Source: Candidatus Sumerlaeia bacterium
GTDB lineage: Bacteria; Sumerlaeota; Sumerlaeia; SLMS01; JAHLLQ01
Length of the DNA stretch: 64,000 nucleotides
Reading direction: 5' to 3'
NCBI GenBank assembly: GCA_028284075.1
Contig: JANQSL010000171.1
Location: 26,378 to 90,377, forward strand
Below the pieces are notes generated by a model. The model was not told the origin of the DNA. It searched no databases and saw nothing but the letters and a program-made list of their open reading frames with translations. A program made the translations under genes and the position numbers. Every line of letters begins with the position of its first letter. Positions within the stretch are counted from its first letter, which is position 1. Shown one piece after another: positions 1 to 42,068 of the stretch.

Positions 1-729
1 CCCCGAATTGCCGGCAAAGACTCCCGCGGCGGCGTTCGGATCGCTGTCTGCAAACTCGAAGTCATCGATCTGGACAACCGTGCCACCGCCTCCGAGTTCC
101 TCGAATTCCAGTTTGTCGAGGAAGATGCTCTGAGCCGAGCCCATTGAGTCTCCGTCCGAGTCCTGGAAAATAATCTGGACGGCGTTCACCTGCTGGAGAA
201 TTCCGTCCACAACAGTGCTGTTGTTAAAATACGCAATGGGATGGTCGATGGTGTATGATGAACCCGCCAGAGCTGAATCCGTGAAATTGATGAACTGAAA
301 CTGATCGCCATCATTGTCAAAAATCCGCACCCAGATGTTCGTGCCACTTGCTCCAAGGCCAAAGTCGGGATGTCCCTTGATATCCAGACGGACGGCAAAG
401 TCCGCCGCCAGATCCGCGTCGGCGATGGGCGTGGTTAATATGTAGGGCGACGAGAGAAAGCGCTCGACCGTTACCGCATCGAAAGCCGTTCCGGTAAATT
501 GAATGTCGTTTCGCAGAGAAAACGAACCTTCAGACGCGTCTCCGCCGGAGCCTGATCCTGCTGCAATAGTGGCTGTGGTGCCCGCAAAAACCGTGGTGCC
601 GGTCTGTGCAGCGGTGTCATCCGTCGCAAACTCAAAATCCTCCACAACTGTCTGAGCGGAGACTCCGGCAATTGCCAGAGCAAATCCGAGTAAGCCGGTT
701 GTGGTTTTGGTCACTAAATTCGTTTTCAT
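1..729 (-). CDS. Secreted acidic beta-sandwich (CBM11-like) protein; partial, runs off the left edge
   Basis: Not in the ORF track because it has no stop in the window. AGGAGG RBS, then ATG at 729: MKTNLVTKTTTGLLGFALAIAGVSA|QTVVEDFEF...ASEGSFSL...IFLDKLEF...VVQIDDFEF. Signal peptide and repeated (V/I)(E/D)DFE motif resemble the 11880..13082 product. Confidence 0.8.
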   Translation of the reverse strand, partial: MKTNLVTKTTTGLLGFALAIAGVSAQTVVEDFEFATDDTAAQTGTTVFAGTTATIAAGSGSGGDASEGSFSLRNDIQFTGTAFDAVTVERFLSSPYILTTPIADADLAADFAVRLDIKGHPDFGLGASGTNIWVRIFDNDGDQFQFINFTDSALAGSSYTIDHPIAYFNNSTVVDGILQQVNAVQIIFQDSDGDSMGSAQSIFLDKLEFEELGGGGTVVQIDDFEFADSDPNAAAGVFAGNSG

Positions 730-784
730 GACTGCATGGCCTCCTGTGTCGGTTGTTGCCTGATGCGGTTGGAGTGGTTTGCTC

Positions 785-1450
785 TTACTGAAATCCGTTC
801 CTGCCGGCATTGCCCGGTCCGAACAGGGTGACATCCCCTGAGCTGATTGTGCCGTTTGTGGGATCGTACGGAAAGCTGGAGTTCTGAGCCCGGTCCGGGC
901 CGAGGCTGCGGAGTTCCCAGAAAACAGATTCCGTTGCGTTGACATTGAGCGCTCCGTTCGCCGTCGTGGGATCAATGCGGAGGGCATTCACGCGATAGTC
1001 CGTCACAAGCCAGCCCCATGTCAGGACGCTGTTGCCGATTCCAGGGAATCCTCCGGGCCGCGACGACGCGTAGAAGTAGTTTGGCGTATAGGGCTGAATG
1101 AATGTCCCGGACCCTCCCGATGCGGCGGTTTCAGGCGCAAAAATATCCACAGGGAGCGACGTCATGTAGGAGACGGGGCTTGTGATTCGCCGGGTTCCCG
1201 GTACCCCCACCGTGATACCGTCGCTCAGTCCGTCCCCATAGGGATAGTTGTTATAGTCGACACGGTAGCTCTCCAGAGCTGTTGCCATGCTTCGCATGTC
1301 AGCCTTCGTGCGAGAAACCTTCGAGCGTGTCTGGGCCTCCAGAAAATTCGGAACCGCGATTGCGGCCAGAATAGCGATGATGGCCACGACGATCAGCAGC
1401 TCGATGAGTGTGAAGCCCCTTGAAGGACTTCGGGAAAGGATTTGTGTCAT
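785..1450 (-). CDS. Type IV pilin / GspG-like pseudopilin with prepilin cleavage-methylation motif
   Basis: RG|FTLIELLIVVAIIAILAAIAVPNF; C-terminal SLGPDR and YDPTNGTISSGD motifs. Confidence 0.9.
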   Translation of the reverse strand: MTQILSRSPSRGFTLIELLIVVAIIAILAAIAVPNFLEAQTRSKVSRTKADMRSMATALESYRVDYNNYPYGDGLSDGITVGVPGTRRITSPVSYMTSLPVDIFAPETAASGGSGTFIQPYTPNYFYASSRPGGFPGIGNSVLTWGWLVTDYRVNALRIDPTTANGALNVNATESVFWELRSLGPDRAQNSSFPYDPTNGTISSGDVTLFGPGNAGRNGFQ

Positions 1451-2234
1451 CGGTGAATCCTTATTATTTCAACGATAAATTTAATCAACTATAACCACTC
1501 TGACCCGTCAAGGCGTTTTTTGATGCGAGACTGTCCGGGAGGAAGAGATGCATTGCAGGTGCGGGATTGTGTTCGAGAGGTCTTGATTACCCTGCGAAAG
1601 GGGAAAACTGCTGGTACGACCCAAAATGTACGCGCCACTCGGCCTCTACTGCAGCGGCCATGATAATCGGTGATTTTGCATCTCGTGTTGAGTTGGAATC
1701 GCACGAGGGAAAACACTGACATTATAAAGAATGCGTCTATTTTGAGACTCTTTGACGAACCGACTTACCAACAATATCACCATGTTTATTCGCGACACCA
1801 ACGGCATCTGCAATCTCATTGAAACGGTCGTCAGCGTCCTCTGGAAACTGGCCACTGATCGTGTTGGACGGCCGTCACCATTCAGTTCGCTCAGTGCCGG
1901 GGCGTCTTCGGAGAATCCGGGCTTGCATGAATCGAAACTGTGCATTGTTCTGGGCAGAAAGAACGAGAGGACCAGATTCCAGATGAAGCGCACCTGACAA
2001 CCAGGCTGGTGCGCCACGGCGGTTTGAGTTGTAATGGCTCGACTTCCGGGATGTTCTCAGGTGTAGGAAAAGGAGTAGTGCGTATATTTTGAGACCTTTG
2101 GCTTCGAGGGTGGAAGTGTCCCGGATTTCGACTGACAAGGAGCGAGTGCTGAAATGTGACCTAAGCGTATACTCGGCGCGTGTTGCCAATTTGCAAATCC
2201 GGCACTTATTCGAATTTCTTTTGTATGGATTGCA

Positions 2235-2263
2235 TTGAAAATCTATCTATAGATAGATAAAAT
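2235..2263 (+). promoter_or_regulatory. Sigma70-type promoter with a perfect 18-bp palindrome over its spacer (TetR operator 1)
   Basis: TTGAAA(2235-2240)-N17-TAAAAT(2258-2263). ATCTATCTATAGATAGAT at 2241-2258 is self-complementary. Confidence 0.7.
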
Positions 2264-2325
2264 ATTTTGACTTTAGTGCTCATTGTAATGTACTCTGCTT
2301 ACAGGCAAATCATTGAGGTCGTGGA

Positions 2326-13116: not shown

Positions 13117-15390
13117 ATGAAGGTAACGGGTGAGTCTGAAAGGAATCGAATGATTTCCAAAGTTCGTTTATTCCTGTTTCTCACCGTTGCCTTTGTTCCC
13201 GGACTTCTTTCGGCCGAGAGTGAAGAAATCACTGTCTGGGCAATGGGGGAGGAGGGTAACCGGATTTCGGTTCTTGCTCAAGCGTTCGAAAGTGAAAACC
13301 CTGGTGTCAGAGTTGTTACTCAGGCCATTCCCTGGAACGGTGCGCATGACAGACTGCTTACTGCAGTGGCAGGAGGACTGACACCGGATGTCGTCCAACT
13401 CGGAACAACCTGGATTCCGGAGTTCGCTGAAATCGATGCATTACTGCCACTCGATTCGTTGATCGGGGAAGGCGAAATCGGTGCAGAGCGTTTCTATCCC
13501 GGATCATGGAAAACGGCCCTTTATGATGACAGGGTCGTTTCCATTCCCTGGTACGTTGACACACGTGTTTACTTCTATCGGTCTGACCTTCTGGAAGATG
13601 CCGGGATCGGAGAGTTTCCCCGCACATGGCAAGGCCTGGAAGAGCTCGGGGAGGCTCTGACACGTGATGTGGATGGAGACGGAACCTTCGACAACCATGC
13701 CTACGATCTGCTTGCCCGCGACTATGGTCTCTCAGTGGCACTGTTCCGACAGGCGGGCGCTTCGATTTTCGGGCCGGATGGAAAAAGCTCTGTTGCATCC
13801 GTCGAAGGCATTGAGAGTTTGAGTTTTTTCCGTTCACTGGTGAGTCGCGGTTATGCACCGGGACCGTCCGGAAGGCAGATTGATCCGATTCAGGACCTGC
13901 GGACGGGGTATGTGGCGAGCTGGATATCAGGTCCGTGGATGGTTGAACTTCTGCGTACCCAGGCGCCTGATCTCAATGGCAAATGGATGGTTGCCGGGAT
14001 GCCGCGGGGGAGGCATGAGTCATCGTTTCTTGGCGGTTGCAATTTGGCGGTCTTCCGAAACTCAACCCGTCCGAATCTGGCACAAAGGTTTGTCGTCTTC
14101 TGTTCCCGACCGGACATTCAGCAATTGTGGTTCTCCGCGACAGGTAATTTGCCTGCGGTGCGCGATGCGTGGAACGCTGAAGAACTTGAGAATGATCCGA
14201 TTTGGCGGGTTTTCAAGAATCAACTCGAATCAGCGGAACCTCCGCCGCCTCTTGTCTCATGGGCCGCAATGGAAAGCGCGATCGAGAATTCCGTTGAAGA
14301 TATGGTGATCAATGAACGCAACCCGGCGGAAACGGCGCGTGAACTGGCTTCAAGACTGGATTCACTTTATCCGAAAGGCCGTCGCGGCAAGGGTAACCTC
14401 TCTGGCCATGGCACGTTGGTGTTGGGAGGGTTCTTCGTCTTTTTTGCGGTGATTGTCGCTTTGTGGGTTCTTGCTCCGGCTCTGCTTGACAGAACATCGA
14501 GCTGGAGACGAGTCGGAGTTTCAGCGATGTTTCTCGCACCGGCAGCACTACACTTGATTGTGTTCATGCTGGTGCCATTGATGATCTCCCTCGCACTCAG
14601 CTTCACGAACTATGACATTTACTCCATTGGCGATTGGAGAACGACATCCTTTGTTGGTTTCGAAAACTACCAAAGGCTTGTCGGAGATGCTCGTTTCTGG
14701 ACGTCGTTTCTCAATACCGTCTATTTCCTTGCTGTGGCGGGGCCATTAACCATTATTGCGGCACTCACGGCAGCGATTATTCTCAATCGAAGGTTTTCAT
14801 CACGGGTTCGGACATTCTTTCGTTCGTCTCTTTTTCTTCCGGTGGTTACTCCTCTTGTCGCGGTGGCGGTTGTATGGAGGTGGCTTCTTGCACCGCAGAG
14901 CGGCCTGATCAATCTCGGACTGGAATGGATCGGCATCGAAGGGCGTGCGTGGCTGACGGATCCGGTTTGGGCAATGCCATCGTTGATTTTGATGGCGGTG
15001 TGGAAAAACGCCGGCTACAGTATGGTGATTTTCCTCGCCGGACTCCAGACGATTCCCCGCACCTTTTATGAGGCGGCTGAGGTCGATGGCGCCGGACCGA
15101 TGCGTCGCTTCGTCAGCATCACTATTCCGCTTTTACGCCCCACTCTCCTCTTCGTCGTTGTCGTGACAACGATAGGTTACATGCAGCTCTTCGCCGAACC
15201 GTATGTCATGACGGCGGGTGGTGGACCGAGCGACCGGACACTATCGATCGTTCTGTATCTTTATCAGGAAGGCTTCAAGTTTTTCAATCTCGGCTATGCT
15301 TCGGCCGTTGCTTACACACTCTGTCTTGTCGTGGCGGTCGTGAGCTTCCTCCAGATGATTCTCGCGGGTTCCCGCGAAGGGAGAATATAA
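13117..15390 (+). CDS. Fused sugar ABC transporter solute-binding protein and MalF-like permease
   Basis: SBP part WAMGEEG...PDVVQLGTTW...IPWYVDTR, in frame with permease FVGFENY...LAGLQTIP..YEAAEVDGA (EAA loop). Start may be 13150. Confidence 0.9.
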   Translation: MKVTGESERNRMISKVRLFLFLTVAFVPGLLSAESEEITVWAMGEEGNRISVLAQAFESENPGVRVVTQAIPWNGAHDRLLTAVAGGLTPDVVQLGTTWIPEFAEIDALLPLDSLIGEGEIGAERFYPGSWKTALYDDRVVSIPWYVDTRVYFYRSDLLEDAGIGEFPRTWQGLEELGEALTRDVDGDGTFDNHAYDLLARDYGLSVALFRQAGASIFGPDGKSSVASVEGIESLSFFRSLVSRGYAPGPSGRQIDPIQDLRTGYVASWISGPWMVELLRTQAPDLNGKWMVAGMPRGRHESSFLGGCNLAVFRNSTRPNLAQRFVVFCSRPDIQQLWFSATGNLPAVRDAWNAEELENDPIWRVFKNQLESAEPPPPLVSWAAMESAIENSVEDMVINERNPAETARELASRLDSLYPKGRRGKGNLSGHGTLVLGGFFVFFAVIVALWVLAPALLDRTSSWRRVGVSAMFLAPAALHLIVFMLVPLMISLALSFTNYDIYSIGDWRTTSFVGFENYQRLVGDARFWTSFLNTVYFLAVAGPLTIIAALTAAIILNRRFSSRVRTFFRSSLFLPVVTPLVAVAVVWRWLLAPQSGLINLGLEWIGIEGRAWLTDPVWAMPSLILMAVWKNAGYSMVIFLAGLQTIPRTFYEAAEVDGAGPMRRFVSITIPLLRPTLLFVVVVTTIGYMQLFAEPYVMTAGGGPSDRTLSIVLYLYQEGFKFFNLGYASAVAYTLCLVVAVVSFLQMILAGSREGRI

Positions 15391-15395
15391 ACGCG

Positions 15396-16301
15396 ATGGC
15401 TGGTGCAGGAATTCGTTTTTCTCCAACGGCTGAGATCGACGGCAGGAAGGGCACTTTACAACAAGTGCCGAGTGCCCGGGGCAGAGGGTTTGTCCGCTCG
15501 ATTCCTGGCCTGCTGTTTCTTCTTCTCGCGGCCGGGGCGGCACTGATCCCTTTTTTGTGGATGATCAGCACCGCTTTCAAGCGGCCGGAAGTCATCTATC
15601 AGATTCCTCCTGTTTGGATTCCAGTCGAGCCGACTCTGCGTCATTTTCAAAACCTTTTCGGACAACTGTCCTTTGCAAGGAACCTCTTCAATTCCACCGT
15701 GGTCACCTTCGGAATCACGGCACTCAGTCTTCTGTTGAACTCAATGGCAGGGTACGCATTCGCCAAACACCGGTTTCCCGGAATGGAGAGATTGTTCGGA
15801 GTCTTTCTGATCACACTGATGGTTCCCGCACAAGTTACGGCGATACCCGTGTTTCTGCTGCTCAAGAAGCTGGGTTTGCTCAATACTCTGGCGGGACTGA
15901 TTATTCCTGCAGCCTCCTCGGTTTTTGGAATTTTTCTCATGCGACAGTTCATGACTTCGATCCCCGATGCACTGATCGAGTCGGGCCGGGTCGACGGTTG
16001 CAGGGAATGGGGCATCTTCTGGTCAATTGTGCTGCCGCAATGCCGCCCCGCGCTTGCGGCACTCGGCATCTTCACATTTCTTGCCGCTTGGTCTGACTTT
16101 TTCTTTCCTTTGATCGTTCTGTTTGATCAGCGAAAGTACACCCTGCCCGTCGCTCTCGCGACACTCAATGGTCAGCACACAACAGACTGGGGAATGTTAA
16201 TGGCCGGTTCACTGGTAGTCATTACTCCCATCGTTCTGCTGTTCATCGCACTTCAACGCAAATTCGTGGAGGGCATCGCTCTCACGGGATTGAAAGGATA
16301 A
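15396..16301 (+). CDS. Carbohydrate ABC transporter permease (MalG-like)
   Basis: PFLWMISTAFK, AGYAFAK, IPDALIESGRVDG (EAA loop), LQRKFVEGI..G.KG. Confidence 0.93.
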   Translation: MAGAGIRFSPTAEIDGRKGTLQQVPSARGRGFVRSIPGLLFLLLAAGAALIPFLWMISTAFKRPEVIYQIPPVWIPVEPTLRHFQNLFGQLSFARNLFNSTVVTFGITALSLLLNSMAGYAFAKHRFPGMERLFGVFLITLMVPAQVTAIPVFLLLKKLGLLNTLAGLIIPAASSVFGIFLMRQFMTSIPDALIESGRVDGCREWGIFWSIVLPQCRPALAALGIFTFLAAWSDFFFPLIVLFDQRKYTLPVALATLNGQHTTDWGMLMAGSLVVITPIVLLFIALQRKFVEGIALTGLKG

Positions 16302-16304
16302 GCA

Positions 16305-18794
16305 ATGCACCGTCATTCTTCAAACGGAGCAAACTCACGACTTTTTGAAACAGAGTACGGTTATTTTGATGTTCGGAATGATTCTTATGTCATCAAGCGC
16401 CCTGACACTCCGCGTCCGTGGGTGAATGTCGTGGCGAACGAACGCTATGGCACGGTAATCAGTCAGGCTGGAGGAGGATTTTCCTGGATCGATCATTCAA
16501 CGCTTTCGGTTCTGACACGCTGGCGTCAGGACCTGGTGCGGGACGACTGGGGAAAGTGGCTGTACATACGCGACGATGAAAGCGGAAATCTTTGGAGTGC
16601 GGCTCCTCAGCCCGTACTTTCCCCATATGATTCCTATGAATGCCGTCACGGGCTTGGTTATAGTGTGTTGTCAGCACGGATTCATGGCATACAGAGCGAA
16701 TGGACAATTGTGGTTCCTCCCGATGCAACATTCGAACTCTGGTATCTCAGGCTCACGAATCTCGATAACAAAGTACGCAACCTGACTGCATGCTCACACT
16801 TTATGTGGAATCTCGGTGCCGCCCCCGACAATCACAGGGAGTTCCATCGGCTCTTTCTTCACAACGACTTCGATAAACAAGCTGGCATTATCCGCGCAAA
16901 CAAGGTTTTGTGGGAAGTTCCCACAGAGAAGCACGGTCATTGGAACACACACTATCCCTATGCGGCTTTCCATGCAGTCTGGAATGAGGCGGGGGAAGCA
17001 CCCGCCACACTCTTCGCATGTGGCGATCACGAGTCATTCACTGGTCGCCATGGGACATGGAAGGCGCCGAGATGGCTGAGTGAGCAAGGTGGGCGGGAAA
17101 CCACCGGATTTGGGCGACACGGCGACGCAATTGCGGCGCTGGCATCCGGCGTTACTCTCGAGCCGGGAGAAACACGGGAGTTGGCATTCGCCCTTGGGGC
17201 TGTTCTCGAGCACGAGCCGGACGTTCAGACGGCGCTCGCTCCCTATCGAACACAGGACAGTCGTCACAGGGTTCTTGAAAGTGTCAGGGTTTTCTGGCAT
17301 GATCGCCGGGAGGGGGTGCAGGTTGAAACGCCTGACGATGCATTCAATCTGCTCGTGAACACCTGGACTCCTTATCAGGCAATGGCGGGAAGGGTTTTTG
17401 GTCGCACCGGCTATTGGCAACAGTCCGGTGCCTACGGTTTCCGCGATCAACTGCAGGACAGCCATGTCTTTCTGCCCTGTGATCCGGAGAGAATGAAATC
17501 AACGCTGCTTCTTCATGCCCATCATCAGTTTGCAAACGGAACTGTCTATCATTGGTGGCACCCTCTTTCCGAAGTGGGTCTGCAAACGGAAATGACCGAC
17601 GATCTTCTGTGGCTTGCTTTCATGACGACCGCCTATCTGAAGGAGACCGGTGACTGGGCCGTTTTGGCGGAAGAAGCTCCGTTTGTTGATTGTCAGAAAC
17701 CGGCTCCGCTCTTCGAACACTGCCGACTTGCAATCACAAAGGTTCTTGAACGCTTTAGTGACCGAGGTCTTCCCCTGATTGGGGCCGGTGACTGGAACGA
17801 TGGCATGAGCGCCTGCGGTCTCTCGTGGAGAGGTGAATCAGTGTGGCTGGGCCACTTTCTCCACGCTGTGCTTGCAGACTGGGTTCGAATTGCCCGTTAC
17901 GAAAACAAGGAGTCGTTGGCGGAGGAGTGGGAGAAGCGGCGGGCGGCTTTACAAGACGCTCTGAATACCGTTGGATGGGATGGTGCCTGGTACTGGCGTG
18001 CTTCGCTGGATGATGGTTCGCTTCTGGGCAGCTCCCGGCGCCGTGAGGGTCGTATTTTTCTCAATGCGCAGACGTGGTCGGTTCTTGCGGGCGTTGCCGA
18101 TGATGATCGTTCAGCTCTTGTCATGGATGCGGTGGAGGAGTATCTCCTGCATGATTTTGGCCCCTCTCTCTTTTCTCCCGCATACCGCAGCCCGGATCCC
18201 CGGATTGGTTATCTGACCCGGTACACTCCCGGCGTGCGGGAAAACGGTGGCGTTTACAGCCATGCCGCAATGTGGGCAATCCAGGCGGCTTGCCGTGTGA
18301 AACGTCCGCAGCTTGCATGGAAAATGTTTTCACGCCTCGCTCCACCGTTTCGTGGAATGAATCCAGAACATTACTGCGTCGAACCGTACGTCATGCCGGG
18401 AAATGTCGATGGGCCGGATTCACCACATTATGGACGTGGCGGATGGTCATGGTACACAGGATCCGCTGCATGGATGCGCCGTATAAGTCTTGAAGCCATT
18501 CTTGGCGTTCAGCCCGGCTGGGATGGTTTGAAAATTGAGCCGTGTTTGCCGCCCCACTGGCCGGAAGCAAGGCTTCACCGGCGGTACCGGGGAGATCTCC
18601 TCGATATCACGATTCGGAATCCCGATCTCTGCGGGTGCGGAGCGGTGCAGATCATCGTTGATGGCGAGGAGCTTGAGCCGGGTCGAAGCATAACTTCTTC
18701 CGGCAGTGGACAAACAAGACGGATTGAAGTCTGCGTGCGTGCCACCGAAGCAACGGCGGTCGGAGCGGGCAGCAACGAAGGGAAAATGTTGTGA
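16305..18794 (+). CDS. GH94 glycoside phosphorylase
   Basis: TPRPWVN, QQSGAYGFRDQLQD, GAGDWNDG (catalytic Asp), RENGGVYSH, GRGGWSWYTGSAAW. Confidence 0.93.
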   Translation: MHRHSSNGANSRLFETEYGYFDVRNDSYVIKRPDTPRPWVNVVANERYGTVISQAGGGFSWIDHSTLSVLTRWRQDLVRDDWGKWLYIRDDESGNLWSAAPQPVLSPYDSYECRHGLGYSVLSARIHGIQSEWTIVVPPDATFELWYLRLTNLDNKVRNLTACSHFMWNLGAAPDNHREFHRLFLHNDFDKQAGIIRANKVLWEVPTEKHGHWNTHYPYAAFHAVWNEAGEAPATLFACGDHESFTGRHGTWKAPRWLSEQGGRETTGFGRHGDAIAALASGVTLEPGETRELAFALGAVLEHEPDVQTALAPYRTQDSRHRVLESVRVFWHDRREGVQVETPDDAFNLLVNTWTPYQAMAGRVFGRTGYWQQSGAYGFRDQLQDSHVFLPCDPERMKSTLLLHAHHQFANGTVYHWWHPLSEVGLQTEMTDDLLWLAFMTTAYLKETGDWAVLAEEAPFVDCQKPAPLFEHCRLAITKVLERFSDRGLPLIGAGDWNDGMSACGLSWRGESVWLGHFLHAVLADWVRIARYENKESLAEEWEKRRAALQDALNTVGWDGAWYWRASLDDGSLLGSSRRREGRIFLNAQTWSVLAGVADDDRSALVMDAVEEYLLHDFGPSLFSPAYRSPDPRIGYLTRYTPGVRENGGVYSHAAMWAIQAACRVKRPQLAWKMFSRLAPPFRGMNPEHYCVEPYVMPGNVDGPDSPHYGRGGWSWYTGSAAWMRRISLEAILGVQPGWDGLKIEPCLPPHWPEARLHRRYRGDLLDITIRNPDLCGCGAVQIIVDGEELEPGRSITSSGSGQTRRIEVCVRATEATAVGAGSNEGKML

Positions 18795-19912
18795 GTAAAA
18801 AGAAAACCACGGAAACAAACGGTCAGCCACGAGCCAAAAGCGGAGCATCAATTTTCGATGTGGCGGCCCGAGCCGGTGTCTCAATAGCAACCGTTTCTCG
18901 TGTCATCAATGGACGAAACCGCGTTGCGCCAGAGACGATACGAAAGGTCGAGGCTGCGATGCATGCACTCCAGTTTCGACCTAACCGGCAGGCTCGCGCC
19001 CTGACGTTGCGCAAGACAGACACAATCGGTCTGGTTCTTCCGGATCTTTACGGGGAGTTCTACGGTGAACTGATGCGTGGTGTCGATCAGGCGGCGCGCG
19101 AGGCGGGAGTGCACGTTCTGATCACAAGGGCTGTCAGTCCCGAGGAAGAACGTGCCACAGTGGAGGAACTCCTGCAGGGAGGCGCTGTCGATGGATTGAT
19201 TTTTCTGGTGTCGCAATTCGAGGACAACGCACTTTCGGATCTGGCACGTTTTCAGGATTCGCTTCTCATTCTGGACCGCGATGTGGGGAACATCGAACTG
19301 GATAACGTGTTGGTTGATAATCGCGATGCCGGTCGTGAGGCAACTCTCCATCTGATTCGAGATGCCGGAGCAGAGAGTCTTGCTTTCATTGGAGGGCCGG
19401 AAGGCAATGTGGACACCGACAATCGGCTCGCGGGGTTTCGGGATGCCTGCCATGAATTGGGAATCGATTCCTCTCCCGAACATATTCACTACAGTGATTA
19501 TTCGTATGAGATGGGTCTCGCCATCGGTGAGTCCTATTCTTCTCTGATTGAAGACGATGGCGGACGCTGGGGGTTCATCGCCGCGAATGACAATCTCGCC
19601 CGTGGCGTTATGGAAGCACTTGTTACCAAAGGCGCGGCCATTCCGCACGATGCCGCAATCATCGGATTCGATGATACGGAACTCGCTCGTGTCGTGCGTC
19701 CCCGGCTGACCTCAATGCGCGTGCCTCTTCAGGAGATCGGACGGACATGCGTTCGATTGCTTGTCGATCGCCTCAGAGGTCTCCGTACCGAACCCGCAAA
19801 GATGGTCTTCAAGGCGAGGCTCGCGCAGCGTGCATCGACCACCATTGACAGTGACCCTCTACAAAACACTCAGGAGAATGAAAATGCATCGTCCTCACAG
19901 GAACAGAACTGA
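18791..19912 (+). CDS. LacI-family transcriptional regulator
   Basis: SIFDVAARAGVSIATVSRVIN HTH; PNRQARAL hinge; IIGFDD; PRLTSM. GTG start overlaps the GH94 stop. Confidence 0.95.
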   Translation: MSKKKTTETNGQPRAKSGASIFDVAARAGVSIATVSRVINGRNRVAPETIRKVEAAMHALQFRPNRQARALTLRKTDTIGLVLPDLYGEFYGELMRGVDQAAREAGVHVLITRAVSPEEERATVEELLQGGAVDGLIFLVSQFEDNALSDLARFQDSLLILDRDVGNIELDNVLVDNRDAGREATLHLIRDAGAESLAFIGGPEGNVDTDNRLAGFRDACHELGIDSSPEHIHYSDYSYEMGLAIGESYSSLIEDDGGRWGFIAANDNLARGVMEALVTKGAAIPHDAAIIGFDDTELARVVRPRLTSMRVPLQEIGRTCVRLLVDRLRGLRTEPAKMVFKARLAQRASTTIDSDPLQNTQENENASSSQEQN

Positions 19913-20540
19913 AGAACGCGCTTTTACACTCATCGAATTGTTGATCGTTGTTGCAATCATAGCAATTCTTGCGGCGATAGCCGTTCCGAATTTCCTCGAG
20001 GCGCAGACACGCAGTAAAGTCAGCCGCGTCAAGGCGGACATGCGCTCTATTGCAACAGCGGTTGAAGCCTACTCCATCGACAATAACAGCTATCCTCTTT
20101 CACAGGAGCTTCTGTCGACCTATCCGAACAGCCCATTTAATACTGCCTTTTTCGGATTTGGATTCATGGCGTATGCCGGCCGCCTTTCAACACCGATTTC
20201 CTATATCACGCAAGTTCCTCGCGACATCTTCAACGAGGGAAACGCTCCCAATCGTCCGGACGGTTTTTCCTTCTTTGAGTATTGGTCCGAGGAAGACAAT
20301 CTCATATTCGGGATCAACGATATTAATGGCTACCGCCGGGAGTTCCTTCCGGACTCGACTCGTTATCTCCTCTGGTCCTGGGGACCCGATCGAGTCGCAT
20401 TCGACCCCACTTTACCGGTAGGGCTTCTACAGGACCAGGTGACAATCTACAATTACTACGATCCAACCAATGGCACCGTCAGTTATGGTAACATCCTTCG
20501 CCCTGGCCCCGGCGGTGGACTCAAGCAGGGGTCAACCTGA
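19884..20540 (+). CDS. Type IV pilin / GspG-like pseudopilin, paralog of 785..1450
   Basis: RA|FTLIELLIVVAIIAILAAIAVPNF; SWGPDR; YDPTNGTVSYGN. AGGAG RBS at 19872; overlaps the LacI end and the next start (TGATG). Confidence 0.9.
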   Translation: MHRPHRNRTEERAFTLIELLIVVAIIAILAAIAVPNFLEAQTRSKVSRVKADMRSIATAVEAYSIDNNSYPLSQELLSTYPNSPFNTAFFGFGFMAYAGRLSTPISYITQVPRDIFNEGNAPNRPDGFSFFEYWSEEDNLIFGINDINGYRREFLPDSTRYLLWSWGPDRVAFDPTLPVGLLQDQVTIYNYYDPTNGTVSYGNILRPGPGGGLKQGST

Positions 20541-21931
20541 TGAGACTTCTGCTTTGTGGACTGATTGTCTCTTCGGCAGCAACAGGCTGGAGCCAGGAAC
20601 TTCAAACGTCTGTCACGAGAGATCATCCTGTTTCCCATCAGGAAATCTCTCCCCAGGACGATGAGCTTCTTGAGGAGATCTCGTATGCCAGCTTTCGGTT
20701 TTTCGTGGATGAGGCAAATCCCTCCACAGCCCTGGTGCCCGATAATGTGCAAAATCCCAACATCAGCAGCATTGCGGCTCAGGGTTATGCATTTTCGGCC
20801 TGGGTTATTGGTGCTGAACGCGGATGGATCGCCCACGGTGAGGCTGAAGCGCTGTCGCTGAAGGCTCTCGGCACACTTGAGAGTACCGATGCCACGCGCT
20901 ATGGGATGTTCGCCCATTTCCTTGATACGCGAACCGGTCAGATTTCCGAGGAGGGATACGAGAGTGGAGCGTCGACAATCGACAGCGCACTCCTTGCTGC
21001 CGGAATGCTGACGGCCGGCGAGTACTTCGGTGGTGAAGTCAAAGCGCGGGCGGACCAGTTGTTTGCTGATATGGACTGGGCGGCGTTCCGCGATCCCGAC
21101 AAGAACAACCAGGTGAGGATGCTTTGGAATCCGGCGGATCCTCACGACTTTTCCGCAGGCGGAGAGTTCGCACAGCCAACGTGGGACTGGTATACTGATG
21201 AAACGCTTCTGATTGTGCTGCTGGGAATATCAGCCCCTGATCCTGGCAAACGGCTCGATCCCGGAGAAGCCATGACCAACTGGAATCGGCCTGTTGGTTC
21301 GTATGGGCAGCACAGTTACATTTACTCCTGGCCGGGTACTCTTTTCACGTACACCTTTGCGCAGTGCTATTTTGACTTCCGCATTCTCGGTGAAGACGTT
21401 CTCGGAGTAAACTGGTGGGAAAACACGTTGTCCGCCGTCAGGGCAAATCGCGACTGGTGCAGGGACAACGCAGGCAGCTATACAACCTACGGACCGAACA
21501 GGTGGGGGGTTACCGCCTGCAGTGGTCCGCAGTTTACTTACGTGGTTCCAGGTCATCAGCCCCGCGGACCGCAGGGCGATGATCCTGCGGGGGGAACCCT
21601 CGCGCCCTATGGTGCCGGTATGGCGGTGCTTTGGGAACCCGCGGATGCGATCGCGGCACTTCGACACATGAAATCCTTCGTTGTTGGAGGGGCTGATGTC
21701 TGGGTATCGGTCGATAGCGGCGGCTATGGTTTCAGAGACGCCTTCAATATCGATGAGAACTGGGCCTCTCCCGATATACTCGGTATCGCTCAGGGGCCTA
21801 TGCTGCTTTGTATTGAAAACCTTCGGAGTGAGCTCCTTTTCAGGACGCTTATCCGGAACCAGCACATTCGCCACGGATTGAAATCCGCCGGCTTTGATGT
21901 TCCCTGTCTCGACAGCTGGCGTATTGAGTAA
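20540..21931 (+). CDS. Secreted 'glycoamylase' / GH144-like (endo-beta-1,2-glucanase family) protein
   Basis: SSIAAQG, STIDSALL, YTDE, LFTYTF, WGVTAC.GP, YGFRDAFN, LGIAQGPMLL.IEN; signal peptide. Confidence 0.82.
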   Translation: MRLLLCGLIVSSAATGWSQELQTSVTRDHPVSHQEISPQDDELLEEISYASFRFFVDEANPSTALVPDNVQNPNISSIAAQGYAFSAWVIGAERGWIAHGEAEALSLKALGTLESTDATRYGMFAHFLDTRTGQISEEGYESGASTIDSALLAAGMLTAGEYFGGEVKARADQLFADMDWAAFRDPDKNNQVRMLWNPADPHDFSAGGEFAQPTWDWYTDETLLIVLLGISAPDPGKRLDPGEAMTNWNRPVGSYGQHSYIYSWPGTLFTYTFAQCYFDFRILGEDVLGVNWWENTLSAVRANRDWCRDNAGSYTTYGPNRWGVTACSGPQFTYVVPGHQPRGPQGDDPAGGTLAPYGAGMAVLWEPADAIAALRHMKSFVVGGADVWVSVDSGGYGFRDAFNIDENWASPDILGIAQGPMLLCIENLRSELLFRTLIRNQHIRHGLKSAGFDVPCLDSWRIE

Positions 21932-21952: not shown

Positions 21953-23302
21953 ATGCTCAAATATCGCTTTCCGGACGGCTTTACATGGGGAGTTTCTTCT
22001 TCCAGCTATCAAATCGAAGGAGCGGCGTCCCAGGATGGGCGTGGGCCTTCCATATGGGATTCGTTTTGTCGCGAGCCGAATCGGATTGCACGAGACGAGA
22101 ACGGAAGTGTCGCCTGTGATCACTACAATCGCATGGAAAGCGACATCGAGCTGATTGCGAAAACGATCAATGCGAATGCCTATCGATTCTCCATTGCCTG
22201 GCCGCGCGTCCTCCCCGAAGGGGAGGGACACGTCAACCCCGCCGGTATCGGCTTCTATGATCGTCTTGTGGACAAATTGCTGGAACAGGGAATCAAACCC
22301 GTTTGCACCTGCTATCACTGGGATCTGCCGCTGGCGCTTCAGAAAAAACACGGTGGATGGCAGTCGAGGCGAGTGGCGGAGCTTTTTGCAGAGTACTGTG
22401 AAATACTGGGAACACACCTTGGCGACAGAGTTGACACATGGTGTACTCTTAATGAACCGGAAGTTGTACTGACGGCTGGATATCGAACCGGCGTTCATGC
22501 ACCCGGACTCATGCTTGATGAAAAGGGGGTTCGGCAGGTTACACATCATCTGCTGCTTGCCCACGGGCTTGGCACACAGGCGTTGCGAAAATCCATTACC
22601 AGACAGGGTGCACGAATCGGACTCGTTCACAACAGCACCAGTTATTCGCCACTGACCGAGTCTGCAGAGGACATCTCGGCAACCCGCGAGGTTTTTCATT
22701 GCGAAAACAGCTGGTTGCTAAGTCCGGTGTCTCATGGTGTTTACCCTGCGGAGCTATGGCGAGAGCTCGATAAGAATGTTCCCGAGACTGAAGACGGAGA
22801 TCTCGCGGTCATTGCCACCTCGACCGACTACCTGGGTATTAATACATACTTCTCCACGGCCATGGTGTCGGGAGAAAGAGGCGAGATCCCGTTCGAGAAG
22901 CATTATCCCCGAACCCTTATGAACTGGCCTGTGACACCGGATACGCTCTATTGGACAACACGGTTTGTTCACGAGCTCTACGGAGGGAAGAAACCGTTGA
23001 TGATTACGGAGAGTGGTTCGGCCTGGCCCGACAAGCCGCAGAGCGACAATGGAACCTCCGTCGTCAACGATCTCGCGAGAATCGTATACCTGCGAGAGCA
23101 CCTTAAGGGAATCCACCGCGCAATCGAGGAAGGCCTTCCTTTGGAAGGATACTTTGTCTGGTCGATTATGGATAATTTCGAATGGAGTGCCGGGTACGAG
23201 AAGCGGTTTGGTTTGATTTACATCGACTACGAAAATCAGAAACGAATCCCTAAAGCGAGTGCGGAATGGTACCGCAACGTTATCAAATGGAATGGATTCT
23301 GA
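21953..23302 (+). CDS. GH1 beta-glucosidase
   Basis: FPDGFTWG..SSSYQIEG, YRFSIAWPR, TLNEP (acid/base), ITESG (nucleophile), DNFEW..GY.KRFGL. Confidence 0.95.
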   Translation: MLKYRFPDGFTWGVSSSSYQIEGAASQDGRGPSIWDSFCREPNRIARDENGSVACDHYNRMESDIELIAKTINANAYRFSIAWPRVLPEGEGHVNPAGIGFYDRLVDKLLEQGIKPVCTCYHWDLPLALQKKHGGWQSRRVAELFAEYCEILGTHLGDRVDTWCTLNEPEVVLTAGYRTGVHAPGLMLDEKGVRQVTHHLLLAHGLGTQALRKSITRQGARIGLVHNSTSYSPLTESAEDISATREVFHCENSWLLSPVSHGVYPAELWRELDKNVPETEDGDLAVIATSTDYLGINTYFSTAMVSGERGEIPFEKHYPRTLMNWPVTPDTLYWTTRFVHELYGGKKPLMITESGSAWPDKPQSDNGTSVVNDLARIVYLREHLKGIHRAIEEGLPLEGYFVWSIMDNFEWSAGYEKRFGLIYIDYENQKRIPKASAEWYRNVIKWNGF

Positions 23303-23600: not shown

Positions 23601-24659
23601 TCACCCCATGAATTGTCGAAAACGATCTTTGTCGAGGGATTTCATGTACGCTTCCTCAGCGGTAATGATGCCTTCCTGCAGATAAACCTGGATGACATCG
23701 TCCATGAGTTGCATACCCATGTTACGTCCGGAAAGAATGACCTGTTGGAGCTGATTGGTTCTGCCTTCACGAATATAGTTTGATGCCGCACGGGTTTGTA
23801 CAAGGATTTCGTTCGCGGCGCGCCGACCTTTGCCGTCGGCAGTCTTGAGTAGAATTTGGGCACAAACCGACCTCAGGGACACTGCAAGAGTTGCGCGAAT
23901 GGCCGTCTGTTGGTCCGTCGGGAACACGTCAATAATACGGTCCACGGTCTTGATGGCACTGTTCGTGTGGAGTGTGCCGAATACCAAAGTTCCCATTTCC
24001 GCCGCCGTGACCGCGAGACTGATCGTTTCCAGGTCGCGCATTTCCCCCACAAGAACAACGTCGGCGTCCTGGCGGCTTGCGGACTTCAAGCCCTCTGAGA
24101 AGGAAGGACAATCGACATGGACTTCACGTTGAACGATTGTCGATTTCTTCATCTGGTGAACGAACTCGATGGGTTCTTCGATTGTTAGGATATACTTTGC
24201 AAAGTTCTCGTTGATGTGGTTGATAATAGCGGCAAGAGTCGTGGATTTGCCACTGCCAGTTGGCCCCGTGACCAACACCATTCCGGACGAATATTCAGCG
24301 AAGGATGCCAGCACTCTCGGCAGCTTGAGTTCCCCCAGCGTCTGAATGATCGAAGGAATTGTGCGGAAAACCGCGCCATAACCTGCGTTCTGGCGGTTCA
24401 AGTTGCATCGAAAGCGAGCTTTGTCACCGAACGCATAGGCCAGGTCCATGTCTCCCGAGGCATCGAACTCTCTCCAGCGCTCGCTGTCGCAAATCTCCTG
24501 TAACATCGTGGAAAGCTGTTCGCCATCCAGTGCGGGCCAGCCATCCACCGGGACGACGCGGCCATGCAGCCGCAGCCGGGGCGGGTTGCCTTCCGCCAGA
24601 TGCAGATCAGAGGCACCGGTTTCCAGCATGTAGTCGAATAGAGGGTCGAGCCGCGCCAT
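23601..24659 (-). CDS. pilT: Type IV pilus retraction ATPase
   Basis: GASDLHL, GPTGSGKST, TIEEPIE, VGEMRD, GTLHTNSA, AASNYIRE, GMQLMD. Confidence 0.93.
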   Translation of the reverse strand: MARLDPLFDYMLETGASDLHLAEGNPPRLRLHGRVVPVDGWPALDGEQLSTMLQEICDSERWREFDASGDMDLAYAFGDKARFRCNLNRQNAGYGAVFRTIPSIIQTLGELKLPRVLASFAEYSSGMVLVTGPTGSGKSTTLAAIINHINENFAKYILTIEEPIEFVHQMKKSTIVQREVHVDCPSFSEGLKSASRQDADVVLVGEMRDLETISLAVTAAEMGTLVFGTLHTNSAIKTVDRIIDVFPTDQQTAIRATLAVSLRSVCAQILLKTADGKGRRAANEILVQTRAASNYIREGRTNQLQQVILSGRNMGMQLMDDVIQVYLQEGIITAEEAYMKSLDKDRFRQFMG

Positions 24660-26194
24660 CAGTGAGATCCTCCCTGACTGCGAAGCGCCTCGAACGCCGA
24701 TTTGTTTTCCGCGTTTCTCCAGGCGTCCTCACCGGAAACCACACCGCTACGGGCCAGTTCCATCAAGGCATCGTCCATCGTCTGCATACCCTGGCGTTTG
24801 CCTGCCTGCATTGCGTTCACAAGCTGGTGCAGTTTGCCTTCCTTGATGAGCGAGGAAACACCGGAGGTCGTTACCAGGAGTTCCGCGGCAAGGACCATTC
24901 CCTCACCATCCGCCCGCGGCAGAAGACGCTGACTGACAATGCCGCGGATGGACTCGCTGATCATCAAAGTGATCTGTTCCTGCTGCTTGATGGGGAAGAC
25001 GTCGAGAACACGGCTGATAGTGCGTGCCGCACTCCCCGTGTGAAGGGTGCCGAACACAAGGTGACCGGTTTCCGCTGCTGAAATCGCAATGGACATCGTG
25101 TCCATGTCACGAAGTTCACCCACGAGAATAATATCCGGGTCCTCACGGAGCGCGGCTCGCAGCGCCTTGCTGAAAGATTCTGTATGAGGACCAACCTCGC
25201 GTTGTGTAACCTGACACGCGATAGGTTCGTGAACGTATTCAATCGGATCTTCGATCGTGACAATATGATCTTCACGAGAGCGATTCACCAGATCCACCAT
25301 CGAGGCGACGGTTGTTGTCTTTCCGGATCGTGTCGGGCCGGTGACCAGGACCAGACCCTGATAATACTCTGTCAGGTTCTTGACGGTGGCGGGAAGTCCC
25401 AGTTGCTCAAGGGAGGGGATTTCCTGGCTAATGACACGATACACACCATCCCAACCCAGTCTCTGGCGGAAGATGTTGCAACGAAACCGGCCGCTCTTTC
25501 CGAGATCGAGACCGAAATCGAGATTCTGATCTTTGAGCAATTGTGTGGTCTGTGAACCCGAAAGAAGGGAGAAGTTCAGCAGTTCCGACTCTTCCGCCGA
25601 CAGTGGCGCCATTTCCATGTAGCGCAGTCGGCCGTGCATGCGAACGAAAGGCGGCTGTCCGACTGAAAGATGCAGATCGGAAGCACCCCAATGACGTGCA
25701 AGTCGCAGGAAATCCTTGAGCCGCGTGGGTCCGCCCGCTTCCGGCTCTTCCGAAGCTCCAACGCGACCCATTGCTGTTTGCTTAGCCGCACCATAGGAGA
25801 CGCTGGACTGTTGCGGTGTTTTTTTCTCGAGCTTCGCTGTGGGAGCGGTTGGAGGGTCGACAGCAACGGGAGCCGTTGCCGGAACCGGATCAGGCGCCGG
25901 CGCCATTGGAGGCGGCACCACGGGCGGCGGAGCGATTGAGGGAGCAGGATCTGTTGGCATCTCAGTTTGCGGGGGAGGCGGCGATTCGGGTTCGGCCACA
26001 TCATCCGCCATCGCGCCGACGGCCTCGGCGAGCTGCTCTGCCTGCTCCGCCGTGAGGAAGTGTTTGCGGACCAGCAACTCACGAGGGTCCTGGCCGGGGA
26101 ACGCTTCCAGTTCTTCGCAGACGTGTTTGTACTGCTTCTTGGTGATGAGTCGATTCTCGAGCGCTATGTCGAGGAAGGGGCTGTTGGAAGTCAC
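24659..26194 (-). CDS. pilT: PilT/PilU-family ATPase with extra N-terminal helical domain and Pro-rich linker
   Basis: GPTRSGKTT, TIEDPIE, ALREDPDIILVGELRD, GTLHT, GMQTMD; about 155-aa N-terminal extension. Confidence 0.88.
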   Translation of the reverse strand: MTSNSPFLDIALENRLITKKQYKHVCEELEAFPGQDPRELLVRKHFLTAEQAEQLAEAVGAMADDVAEPESPPPPQTEMPTDPAPSIAPPPVVPPPMAPAPDPVPATAPVAVDPPTAPTAKLEKKTPQQSSVSYGAAKQTAMGRVGASEEPEAGGPTRLKDFLRLARHWGASDLHLSVGQPPFVRMHGRLRYMEMAPLSAEESELLNFSLLSGSQTTQLLKDQNLDFGLDLGKSGRFRCNIFRQRLGWDGVYRVISQEIPSLEQLGLPATVKNLTEYYQGLVLVTGPTRSGKTTTVASMVDLVNRSREDHIVTIEDPIEYVHEPIACQVTQREVGPHTESFSKALRAALREDPDIILVGELRDMDTMSIAISAAETGHLVFGTLHTGSAARTISRVLDVFPIKQQEQITLMISESIRGIVSQRLLPRADGEGMVLAAELLVTTSGVSSLIKEGKLHQLVNAMQAGKRQGMQTMDDALMELARSGVVSGEDAWRNAENKSAFEALRSQGGSH

Positions 26195-26270
26195 ACGCTC
26201 ACCCGGTCAGATTGATCGGTCTGTAGTATCGTGTAAATTCTGCTTCCGAGAGCACAGGCGGACCGCTCTC

Positions 26271-27719
26271 TCAGGAAACGGCGCTTTGTTTTCTGCGGTG
26301 CTGATCCACCGCCACGCAAAACGCCTTGTAGAATTCCTTGATTGCTTTCATTTCCCAGTCCGCAAGAAGGCCTGCGTCGTAACTTTTGCGTACGTCCGTG
26401 AACATACTCACAAGTTGCTGACGCATCTTCTCAAGCTGGTCCGGCGTGAGTTCCTTCATGTCGCTCAGACACAACTCCACACGACGGTCTTCCGGCGATA
26501 TTTCACCGGATTCGTTCTGTTTGTCGTCAGCCGCTTCCGGAGCCAGAGGCTGATCCGTCATCCCGGCGATCAGGTTCTTTGCATCCGGCGACTGTGGGCC
26601 CAGTGCCTCGACAAGGTCCGCGGCGGACACACCCTGGGTGGGAAGATCGGCAAAGCCCTCTCCCAGTCGCTCGTCAGCTTCGGAAAGCCACGATTCGAAG
26701 TCGTCCACTCCATCGACTTCGTCATCGGTTCCCTGGACGGGGTTTTCATCTTCGTCAAGGCTCTCGCCAAGCTCCTCGGCGAGTTTGTGGAGGGCTCCCT
26801 GGAGGACTTTCAACTTGGGGCTGTTGGGCATGCAGTTCAGGGCCCCGTCGACAGCCAGCTGAGCGCGGTGTGGTTCGCGCGCCTCCAGAAGCAGCTCGGC
26901 GGCGCGTTCATAAGACTGGCTTGCCGGACCCTTCTTGGCCTGCGACATCAGCAACTCGCCCTGGAGGTAGTGGGTCATGCCGTTCTGATCGTCCAGCTCC
27001 AGCATTGACGTGACGGTTTCCTGGGCGCCCCGCACCTGACCATACTGCATGTAGAAGTCGACGACCCATTTGAGCTGTTCCGCGGCTGCATCGGGCCGTC
27101 CCATGCGCGAGAACAGATAAGCAAGTTCCTTCCGGGCCTTAACCGCACCGGGCTGAAGAATAATCAGAATGTTATAGATAGAAAGAGTCTTTTCAAGCTC
27201 TCCGCGAACGGCATAGGATTCGGCTGCGAGCATGTACTCGCGGAAGGCGTCATCCTTCCGGTTCAGTTCGAGATAAAGCGCGGCCAGTTTTGACCGGGTG
27301 ATCTCATCCCGGGGATCGAGTTGAACCGCCTGCTCCAGGTAGGGAAGGGCGTCTTCATGCATTCCCTTGTTGATGTACATCTCACCGCGGAACAGCAGGT
27401 CGTTGGACTTGTCGTCCTCACCGAAGAGGTTCTTGGTCACCTCGTCGAGACCGCAGTCGTAATACATCGCAACGAGCTCGATCAGTAACCCGCCTTCGTA
27501 GGCGTCACACTGTGAATACTGGCACTTGAAGGTACGCTCCGATGTGTCGATAATCATCGACTTGCGAACCAGGTCTTTATGAACCGGGCAGTGGATTCGG
27601 ACGATACTGCCCTCTTGGTAGATGGAAGACTCTGTAAACCCCATCCGCTTGAGAACGACAAACGGGTCCAGAGACGCGTTGAAGGAATAATCCGAGTCTT
27701 TGAGTTCGAATCGAGCCAT
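26271..27719 (-). CDS. CHC2 (primase-type) zinc finger plus TPR-repeat protein
   Basis: Start re-called at MARFELKD. IHCPVHKD...FKCQYSQC...GGLLIELVA; TPR helices (ALPYLEQAVQLDPRD); acidic linker and helical tail. Confidence 0.72.
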   Translation of the reverse strand: MARFELKDSDYSFNASLDPFVVLKRMGFTESSIYQEGSIVRIHCPVHKDLVRKSMIIDTSERTFKCQYSQCDAYEGGLLIELVAMYYDCGLDEVTKNLFGEDDKSNDLLFRGEMYINKGMHEDALPYLEQAVQLDPRDEITRSKLAALYLELNRKDDAFREYMLAAESYAVRGELEKTLSIYNILIILQPGAVKARKELAYLFSRMGRPDAAAEQLKWVVDFYMQYGQVRGAQETVTSMLELDDQNGMTHYLQGELLMSQAKKGPASQSYERAAELLLEAREPHRAQLAVDGALNCMPNSPKLKVLQGALHKLAEELGESLDEDENPVQGTDDEVDGVDDFESWLSEADERLGEGFADLPTQGVSAADLVEALGPQSPDAKNLIAGMTDQPLAPEAADDKQNESGEISPEDRRVELCLSDMKELTPDQLEKMRQQLVSMFTDVRKSYDAGLLADWEMKAIKEFYKAFCVAVDQHRRKQSAVS

Positions 27720-40267: not shown

Positions 40268-40316
40268 CCGGCAAACTTTCCCGGCAGGACGTTCCACCAA
40301 GGATCACGGACTTCTC

Positions 40317-41489: not shown

Positions 41490-41548
41490 CCAATCCCCTC
41501 AACTCCTGGAAATCACGCGGCGGGTTGCAAGAAGAAAGGATCCATCAG

Positions 41549-42031: not shown

Positions 42032-42068
42032 CCTGCAGCGCTGACACACCTTCCCGGGACGATACTCC

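Follow-up and report, generated by a model that had tools for sequence, protein, structure and literature searches.

The standard layout of a type IV pilin is a conserved N-terminal helix followed by a head with variable edges, and GspG of the type II secretion system (T2SS) has a calcium-binding loop near its C-terminus. In systems such as the type IVb minor pilin pairs CofB-CofJ and TcpB-TcpF, and in the archaeal bindosome, a pilin-class subunit is encoded beside a specific secreted or binding protein and works with it; systems of the CofB-CofJ and TcpB-TcpF type have one such pair per pilus operon. Pilins are also linked to glycan use and to large lineage-specific families: CbPilA of C. bescii is described as induced by xylan and as binding xylan and cellulose (bioRxiv 10.1101/614800), PilA of M. 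xanthus as binding exopolysaccharide (EPS) glucosamine through Trp146 (PMC12691611), and Planctopirus limnophila as encoding 68 DUF1559 paralogs (PMC10632474). Here we analyze two pilin-like genes, P0001 and P0002, in a stretch of 64,000 nucleotides (henceforth the window) from a Candidatus Sumerlaeia bacterium (assembly GCA_028284075.1, contig JANQSL010000171.1, positions 26,378 to 90,377 of the forward strand). Both belong to a large family in which a near-invariant helix is combined with old heads that are conserved between orthologs, and some of these lineages have kept their own neighboring genes across genera. Our best reading, to which we assign a probability of roughly 0.5, is that the proteins would act as adaptor subunits linking a common fiber to locus-specific capture or secretion.

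P0001 and P0002 are intact open reading frames (ORFs), each with a Shine-Dalgarno-like ribosome-binding site (AAGGA/AGGAGA) ahead of its ATG, and their products are 40% identical overall (BLASTP, E 2e-28). The genes and their constant parts are located as follows.

785 to 1450, minus strand: P0001, prepilin of a GspG-like family, 221 residues, paralog 1 (ORF and translation; Pfam N_methyl, E 7e-10; N-terminal part of T2SSG)
1241 to 1414, minus strand: constant N-terminal helix of P0001, residues 13-70 (helix at 15-66 in the AlphaFold model; 48 of 55 residues identical to P0002)
833 to 868, minus strand: conserved C-terminal loop of P0001, YDPTNGTISSGD, residues 195-206 (Y195, D196, N199, G200, T201, S203 and G205 invariant in 112 homologs)
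19884 to 20540, plus strand: P0002, prepilin of the same family, 218 residues, paralog 2 (ORF and translation; Pfam)
19923 to 20096, plus strand: constant N-terminal helix of P0002, residues 14-71, following the predicted cleavage site (helix at 16-67 in the AlphaFold model)
20457 to 20492, plus strand: conserved loop of P0002, YDPTNGTVSYGN, residues 192-203 (Y192, N196, G197, S200 and G202 invariant in 100 homologs)

Prepilin cleavage is predicted between G12 and F13 in P0001 (SPSRG/FTLIELL) and between A13 and F14 in P0002 (TEERA/FTLIELL). Counted from these sites, there are 39 identities in the first 40 mature residues, 48 in 55 and 50 in 60, so that "nearly identical", as a preliminary description of this DNA put it for the first ~55 residues, is a fair wording. 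The three blocks named there are present as written: RITSPVSYMTSLPVDIF in P0001 and RLSTPISYITQVPRDIF in P0002, SLGPDR and SWGPDR, and YDPTNGTISSGDVTLFGPG and YDPTNGTVSYGNILRPGPG, respectively. The segments between the blocks are as dissimilar as claimed, with 3 of 17 positions identical in V1, 15 of 72 in V2 and none of 8 in V3. With membership in the pilin class, 40% identity, and a constant part joined to paralog-specific parts, the pair is rightly called two paralogous pilins with a constant scaffold. The 875 bp upstream of P0001 (window 1451-2325) hold short overlapping ORFs only, with no convincing gene call, nor did a simple scan of the minus strand reveal a promoter-like site there.

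Both translations carry the prepilin signature, namely a short basic leader, glycine or alanine at position -1, phenylalanine at +1, glutamate at +5 and about 20 hydrophobic residues. P0001 and P0002 score above the cut-offs of PF07963 (38.4 and 31.9 bits; cut-off 21.2), TIGR02532 (35.2 and 30.8 bits; cut-off 16.3) and the T2SSG model PF08334 (24.3 and 24.7 bits; cut-off 21), the last covering profile positions 2-44 and 2-52 of 108 only. The GspG equivalog model TIGR01710 yields 59.2 and 55.7 bits, under its cut-off of 88.85, the Myxococcus PilA model NF041775 (cut-off 400) yields 64.7 and 62.2 bits and matches the N-terminal helix only, and the DUF1559 and H-X9-DG models of Pfam and NCBIfam match neither protein at E <= 0.1. 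Neither translation contains a cysteine, and hence neither protein can have a C-terminal disulfide-bonded D-region.

Confident AlphaFold models built from 112 homologs for P0001 (mean predicted local distance difference test score, pLDDT, 84.6) and from 100 homologs for P0002 (82.6) predict a GspG-like fold. In an all-against-all structural alignment the best match of both models is V. cholerae EpsG (4lw9_A), with Z 8.1, a root-mean-square deviation (rmsd) of 2.5 and 102 of 119 residues aligned for P0001, and Z 6.8, rmsd 3.4 and 100 residues aligned for P0002; these Z scores of 6.8-8.1 are middling on the tool's own scale. PulG (5wda_A) comes second for both (Z 6.8 and 6.5), and the first 20 structural matches of either model consist almost entirely of pilins. 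The GspG head fold is thus recovered in both models, at middling Z. Foldseek against the PDB returned nothing at E <= 0.001, its E values being at least 0.1. A profile search of PDB sequences gave helix matches only, the best being Geobacter and Myxococcus type IVa pilins, and the C-terminal 56 residues, which include the YDPTNGT.S.G region, matched no pilin among the PDB chain sequences. Based on the Pfam and NCBIfam scores, the fold matches and the restriction of PDB sequence matches to the helix, P0001 and P0002 are most probably subunits of type IV filaments with a GspG-type head that is predicted to be enlarged by insertions, and not GspG equivalogs. A T2SS-like cluster with its own 145-residue pilin lies elsewhere in the genome, on contig C124.

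The two genes are nothing special within the genome from which the window comes (G000; 4.9 Mb in 275 contigs, 90.4% complete; other G numbers denote other genomes of the phylum). A tblastn search with P0001 yields 72 matches in G000, and a motif scan for the NFLEAQ-type N-terminus identifies 47 family genes, three of them cut by contig ends, of which P0001 and P0002 are two. All 75 Sumerlaeota genomes searched carry the family, with 13 to at least 40 matches each, the number of candidates scored being capped at 40 per genome. More than 7,000 database proteins match: the closest are named Sumerlaeia or Candidatus Sumerlaeota, the record titles of more distant relatives read Candidatus Omnitrophota, and of the nearest Atlas clusters most belong to Candidatus Sumerlaeota and one to Planctomycetota. 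Three constant components are common to every member: a near-invariant polymerization helix (FTLIELLIVVAIIAILAAIAVPNFLEAQ...) together with its class III signal peptide, a GspG-like sheet recognizable by TTP.AY..S.P.D.F and S.GPD, and a closing YDPTNGT.S.G loop.

How is the helix kept constant across so many genes? Among the 46 family genes whose 5' end is intact, 34 encode an identical 28-residue helix core, and the DNA of these 34 has a mean nucleotide identity of 0.795, falling to 0.42 at third codon positions. Since third-position identity is only 42% under an identical protein core, we conclude that the constant helix is held by purifying selection on the protein, and not by recent duplication or gene conversion. 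The same value, along with the conservation of the heads in orthologs, led us to reject gene conversion or pilE/pilS-like cassettes as the source of the identical 5' parts. The natural reading of the shared helix is that all paralogs would have to fit the same peptidase, platform and fiber core.

The segments that differ between the two paralogs are conserved between orthologs. V2 of P0001 is identical to that of its best ortholog, P0003 (72% overall identity), at 40 of 72 ungapped positions, against 15 of 72 for the paralog P0002, and V1, V2 and V3 of P0002 match those of the ortholog P0122 (76% overall identity) at 18 of 28, 30 of 44 and 16 of 22 positions. In a FastTree phylogeny of 91 sequences (support values not shown), the ortholog groups from other genera each form a tight clade with one G000 gene, while long branches set the G000 paralogs apart and P0001 and P0002 fall into different deep clades. 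On account of these long paralog branches and of the single clade per ortholog group, the heads reflect old subfunctionalization and not ongoing diversification. The term "hypervariable", applied to the loops in the preliminary description, therefore has to be dropped, given their conservation in orthologs, and the "antibody-like" constant/variable design proposed there fares no better: the segments are ortholog-conserved, the paralog lineages are old, and the layout is the standard one for type IV pilins. The aromatic richness ascribed to the loops holds for P0002, in which phenylalanine, tryptophan and tyrosine make up 18 of 94 variable residues (19%); it is modest in P0001 (11 of 97, 11%; 8.1% in the called proteins of the genome) and does not extend to the family. 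In the column composition, computed over 44 of the 47 rows (full-length paralogs, after dropping two genes cut by contig ends and, by hand, the divergent C129 gene), these residues account for 11.2% of variable and scaffold columns alike, and aromatic enrichment was rejected as a family-wide property of the loops. The variable columns are rich in asparagine, proline and glycine, moderately rich in tyrosine and phenylalanine, and poor in lysine, arginine, glutamate and leucine.

P0002 is embedded in a cluster of genes for sugar utilization.

13150 to 16301, plus strand: sugar ATP-binding cassette (ABC) importer, consisting of a fusion of solute-binding protein (SBP) and permease (13150-15390) and a second permease (15465-16301) (Pfam SBP_bac_1 and BPD_transp_1)
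16305 to 18794, plus strand: phosphorylase of glycoside hydrolase (GH) family 94 (Pfam Glyco_hydro_94, E 2.5e-112)
18791 to 19912, plus strand: LacI-family regulator, whose 3' end overlaps the start of P0002 by 29 nt (Pfam LacI and Peripla_BP_3)
20540 to 21931, plus strand: secreted GH144-like endo-beta-1,2-glucanase homolog, whose ATG overlaps the P0002 stop by 1 nt (Pfam PF10091, E 4e-44)
21953 to 23302, plus strand: GH1 beta-glucosidase (Pfam Glyco_hydro_1, E 1e-146)

The PF10091 protein matches the endo-beta-1,2-glucanase of PDB entry 5gzh over residues 39-457 (E 8e-31), and the operon therefore looks like a system for beta-1,2-glucan or sophoro-oligosaccharides. Its first gene (13150-15390, plus strand) encodes a 746-residue protein in which a CUT1-type solute-binding domain (SBP_bac_1) is joined to an ABC permease domain, and the orthologous clusters in G051 and G036 begin with a fusion of the same kind (821 and 745 residues, respectively). 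The best matches of P0002 in G051 (60% identity), G036 (59%) and G032 (53%) all lie in the same GH94/LacI/PF10091/GH1 (plus ABC importer) cluster, which makes three of the four examined. Directly after the glucan operon, at window 23601-27719 on the minus strand, are two genes for ATPases of the T2SSE family (a PilT-like protein of 352 residues and one of 511 residues) and one for a tetratricopeptide repeat (TPR) protein.

Stable pairing of a pilin lineage with its neighbors extends beyond P0002. The paralog on contig C157 is flanked by genes for a GH13 amylase and a secreted protein with an X25 domain and is matched once in each of 26 other genomes. Of the 20 loci fetched for this group, 15 have an X25 protein homolog as the next gene downstream, in the same orientation, and contig ends truncate three of the remaining five. 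In the C121 group, a homolog of the 517-residue secreted neighbor of the C121 gene is adjacent in 11 of 15 loci, accompanied in five of the 15 by an ABC importer of the FecCD type; the matches fetched with the C155 gene proved to be orthologs of the sister C121 gene. Two sister paralogs, C24_3861 and C121_857, are each followed by a homologous secreted protein (locus L002, 4485-5402, plus strand; locus L015, 1-836, minus strand). These partners are 38% identical over 298 residues (E 3e-50) and have D(R)W(H/Y)YPFN in common, which suggests that pilin and partner may have been duplicated as a unit. The expectation that loop type tracks gene neighborhood thus held for the ortholog groups, which keep their own neighbors across genera in the P0002 cluster (3 of 4) and in the C157 (15 of 20) and C121 (11 of 15) groups. 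When 160 loci of more distant relatives were searched by tblastn with five partner proteins, the GH144 protein, the 713-residue neighbor described below and a partial partner as queries, the secreted protein beside P0001 was found in one locus, the X25 protein in two and the other queries in none.

This neighbor of P0001 is a large secreted protein, whose gene follows the pilin gene.

1 to 810, minus strand: 5' part of the gene for a 693-residue secreted protein, downstream of P0001 and running off the start of the window (gene call and sequence)

Its signal-peptide-like start, MKTNLV..., lies 55 nt past the pilin stop, while the longest ORF overlaps the pilin gene by 26 nt. The protein consists in part of two repeats of ~190 residues, each opening with VV.DFEF, and has no match in Pfam or among PDB sequences; the other neighbor of P0001 is a TetR gene. 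Among the 75 genomes there is one close P0001 ortholog, in G040 (72% identity), and a 57%-identical homolog of the 693-residue protein follows it. The 693-residue protein (L026, 2445-4526, minus strand) and the 517-residue neighbor of the C121 gene (L015, 10375-11928, minus strand) both carry VV.DF(D/E)F..DD right after the signal peptide and contain strands like YVDDFKIV and LYLDDVSV. Homology of the two was considered and rejected, as only the N-terminal VV.DF.F..DD motif is common to them and BLASTP gives E 0.07. A scan for DF[DE]F[EAD] retrieved 10 proteins, of which only these two and one unrelated SpoIIE protein, 1.6 kb away, are near a paralog. Downstream of the 693-residue protein is one of 713 residues (L026, 174-2315, minus strand, equal to C161:22835-24976) with a weak fn3 hit only and no PDB sequence match.

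Across the genome the picture is mixed, as seen from a Pfam analysis of 210 neighbors of G000 paralogs. Within 4 kb of a paralog are four of the seven LacI genes, three of the 12 SBP_bac_1 genes, and all FUR genes and strong FecCD permeases of the genome (two of each); this total of 11 of 23 uptake markers compares with 1.6 expected and is reached in none of 10,000 permutations, an enrichment that is post hoc in that the marker classes were picked after the neighborhoods had been seen. The FUR and strong FecCD genes (C118:61995, C180:38122, C121:12860 and C159:19466) lie 0.5-2.8 kb from a pilin paralog, and further paralogs adjoin a Peripla_BP_2 gene, a heme oxygenase and ExbB/ExbD. Filament machines are well represented in G000, with nine secretin matches over the cut-off, five genes of the GspF/PilC type and 19 T2SSE matches. 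One T2SSE match, at C161:51030-51911, is flagged for an internal TGA.

We propose that P0001 and P0002 are subunits of type IV-filament machines, in the class of T2SS pseudopili and type IV pili. Paralog-specific insertions after the helix and between strands give each lineage its own head, and the shared helix would allow any paralog to be processed by one prepilin peptidase and to enter a common fiber or assembly platform. The head would serve as an adaptor made together with its own operon, as P0002 would be under the LacI-type regulator of the beta-1,2-glucan operon, and might bind the neighboring exported protein (the GH144 glucanase for P0002, the 693-residue repeat protein for P0001) or the substrate of that protein. 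The outcome would be a general fiber machine coupled to locus-specific secretion, display or capture.

Several observations weigh against this proposal. Regarding the machinery and the class, glycine is the usual requirement before a prepilin cleavage site, and position -1 is alanine in 30 of the 47 members and glycine in 17. No match to a prepilin peptidase (Peptidase_A24) was found in the 90.4%-complete G000 assembly; the enzyme is present in all 24 other genomes of the order. Neither P0001 nor P0002 is in a gsp or pil operon, both score below the GspG equivalog cut-off, and the structural matches are middling. Regarding the neighborhoods, many paralogs sit beside housekeeping genes (those for tyrosyl- and aspartyl-tRNA synthetase, TyrRS and AspRS, GAPDH and ScpAB), 36 of 47 have no LacI, SBP_bac_1, FUR or FecCD marker within 4 kb, and the marker enrichment is post hoc. 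A co-directional gene is downstream of 26 of 47 paralogs and within 200 bp in only 22 of 47; an N-terminal hydrophobic segment occurs in 11 of these 22 downstream genes, against a genome background of 33% by the same crude test. The best P0002 match in G044 (62% identity) is outside a glucan cluster. For P0001, a homolog of the 693-residue protein is not found beside the three matches at 49-53% identity nor in 159 of the 160 further loci of relatives, which leaves G040 as the sole other genome with this pairing.

The same neighborhoods and compositions can be read differently, and the most direct of these readings makes the pilins themselves glycan adhesins, in line with the sugar option of the preliminary description: the variable loops would bind polysaccharide, and a pilus containing the induced paralog would attach the cell to the substrate of its own operon or collect it. 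The 19% of aromatic residues in the variable segments of P0002, compared with 8.1% in the genome, point in this direction, as do the family-wide enrichment of asparagine, proline, glycine, tyrosine and phenylalanine and depletion of lysine, arginine, glutamate and leucine in variable columns, the paralogs within 4 kb of four of seven LacI genes, and the polysaccharide-binding pilins described in the sources cited above. However, aromatic residues are equally frequent in scaffold and variable columns and reach only 11% in the P0001 loops, some conserved contexts are unrelated to carbohydrates (a FecCD importer, both FUR genes, a heme oxygenase), and several conserved partners are themselves of a non-catalytic binding type (X25 domain, beta-sandwich-like repeats), which makes a second binder less necessary. 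We consider it unlikely that the heads act in this way. If, by contrast, identical helices permitted the free mixing of subunits, the paralogs could be interchangeable major subunits that vary the fiber surface, be it for evasion of phages or grazers or for surface chemistry, and the neighborhoods would be largely incidental, as the 36 of 47 paralogs scattered beside unrelated genes might indicate. Yet the heads are kept between genera and the ortholog groups are single-copy and syntenic, which argues for fixed functions and not for the turnover of an arms race; nor are there silent cassettes or, at a third-position identity of 0.42, any sign of gene conversion. We regard such interchangeable subunits as very improbable.

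Uptake, finally, could be the function itself. Substrate-specific pilins, alone or with a secreted partner, would be retractable import receptors that capture nutrients, and retraction through secretin channels would replace TonB-dependent transport. G000 encodes a single TonB-dependent receptor (C107:27287-29740), and a Plug domain is absent from 36 of the 44 phylum genomes with a completeness of 90% or more; in G000, nine secretins and many PilT-like ATPases are available, the two FUR genes and the two strong FecCD permeases are within 3 kb of a paralog, and the PilT-like ATPase genes of the window follow the glucan operon. This case is wholly circumstantial, though. The secretins are the sole basis for assuming a diderm envelope, and the marker association covers only 11 of 47 paralogs. 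We are doubtful of this reading, and equally so of its fullest version, in which dozens of substrate-specific pilins, each with a secreted binder or enzyme under a matching regulator (LacI, Fur), would fish oligosaccharides, heme or metal chelates across the outer membrane by retraction. Were that true, the pili would be the functional equivalent of SusC/D-type and TonB-dependent uptake systems. The adaptor reading thus remains the one we prefer, at the probability given above.

Three further features of the window deserve mention. A 1,145-residue triple fusion of a major facilitator superfamily (MFS) transporter, an acyltransferase and an AMP-binding enzyme is encoded at 33876-37313 on the minus strand. 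The interval 39917-44613 on the plus strand contains an MglA/MglB-like module of two Roadblock/LC7 proteins, an Arf-like small GTPase (390 residues), a DUF4388 protein and a response regulator. A very large ORF of at least 2,269 residues with a Calx-beta domain runs off the window at 58042-64000 on the plus strand.

Very large pilin-like families, such as the one in Sumerlaeota, its Omnitrophota relatives as judged by record titles, and the planctomycete DUF1559 family, rank with the largest protein families to which no role has been assigned. For the P0001/P0002 locus and three others, the paralog lineages are old, keep their own heads and are tied to specific nutrient-acquisition genes, including the beta-1,2-glucan operon, a starch-binding-type protein and a FecCD importer. 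Pilin-like paralogs of unknown function thereby become testable pairs of head and neighbor or head and substrate, and the placement of each kind of pilin beside its own nutrient-acquisition genes hints at pilus-type fibers specialized for food capture. Should the heads indeed tether or import cargo, type IV-filament machines would be coupled to feeding in a novel way, and this would help explain life without TonB-dependent transporters.

Large pilin-like families as such are already known. In a literature search that did not extend to subscription journals, we found no paper on Sumerlaeota pilins or on secretion or pili in Sumerlaeota, on locus-specific pilin-partner pairs or on a planctomycete pseudopilin expansion; a Sumerlaeota family with locus-specific pilin-partner pairs was thus not found in the literature. 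Among known systems, T2SS GspG (EpsG, PulG) resembles P0001 and P0002 in its class III signal peptide and N-terminal helix and in the absence of a disulfide-bonded D-region, and is their best predicted-fold match; the T2SSG profile of Pfam is hit by both over its first 42-51 positions. The matched GspG chains have 119-134 residues, whereas P0001 and P0002 have ~205 mature residues, a greater length that is due to three paralog-specific insertions. Unlike GspG, the two proteins are below the TIGR01710 cut-off, lie outside a gsp operon, belong to a family with 47 copies in the genome and carry the conserved YDPTNGT.S.G loop, which is not matched in sequence by any chain of known structure. Similarity to CbPilA and M. 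xanthus PilA lies in the link between a pilin and glycan use, and the helix of the family is closest by profile to Geobacter and Myxococcus type IVa pilins; however, CbPilA and M. xanthus PilA are single major pilins in pilus loci, whereas Sumerlaeota have dozens of paralogs across substrate-specific operons. The planctomycete DUF1559 family is likewise a very large, lineage-specific, pilin-like family to which no function has been assigned, but the family of P0001 and P0002 has no DUF1559 or H-X9-DG match (E <= 0.1) and a different conserved C-terminal motif. As for CofB-CofJ and TcpB-TcpF, the difference is one of number and sharing, in that the many independent pilin-partner pairs of Sumerlaeota presumably share one helix and one machine.

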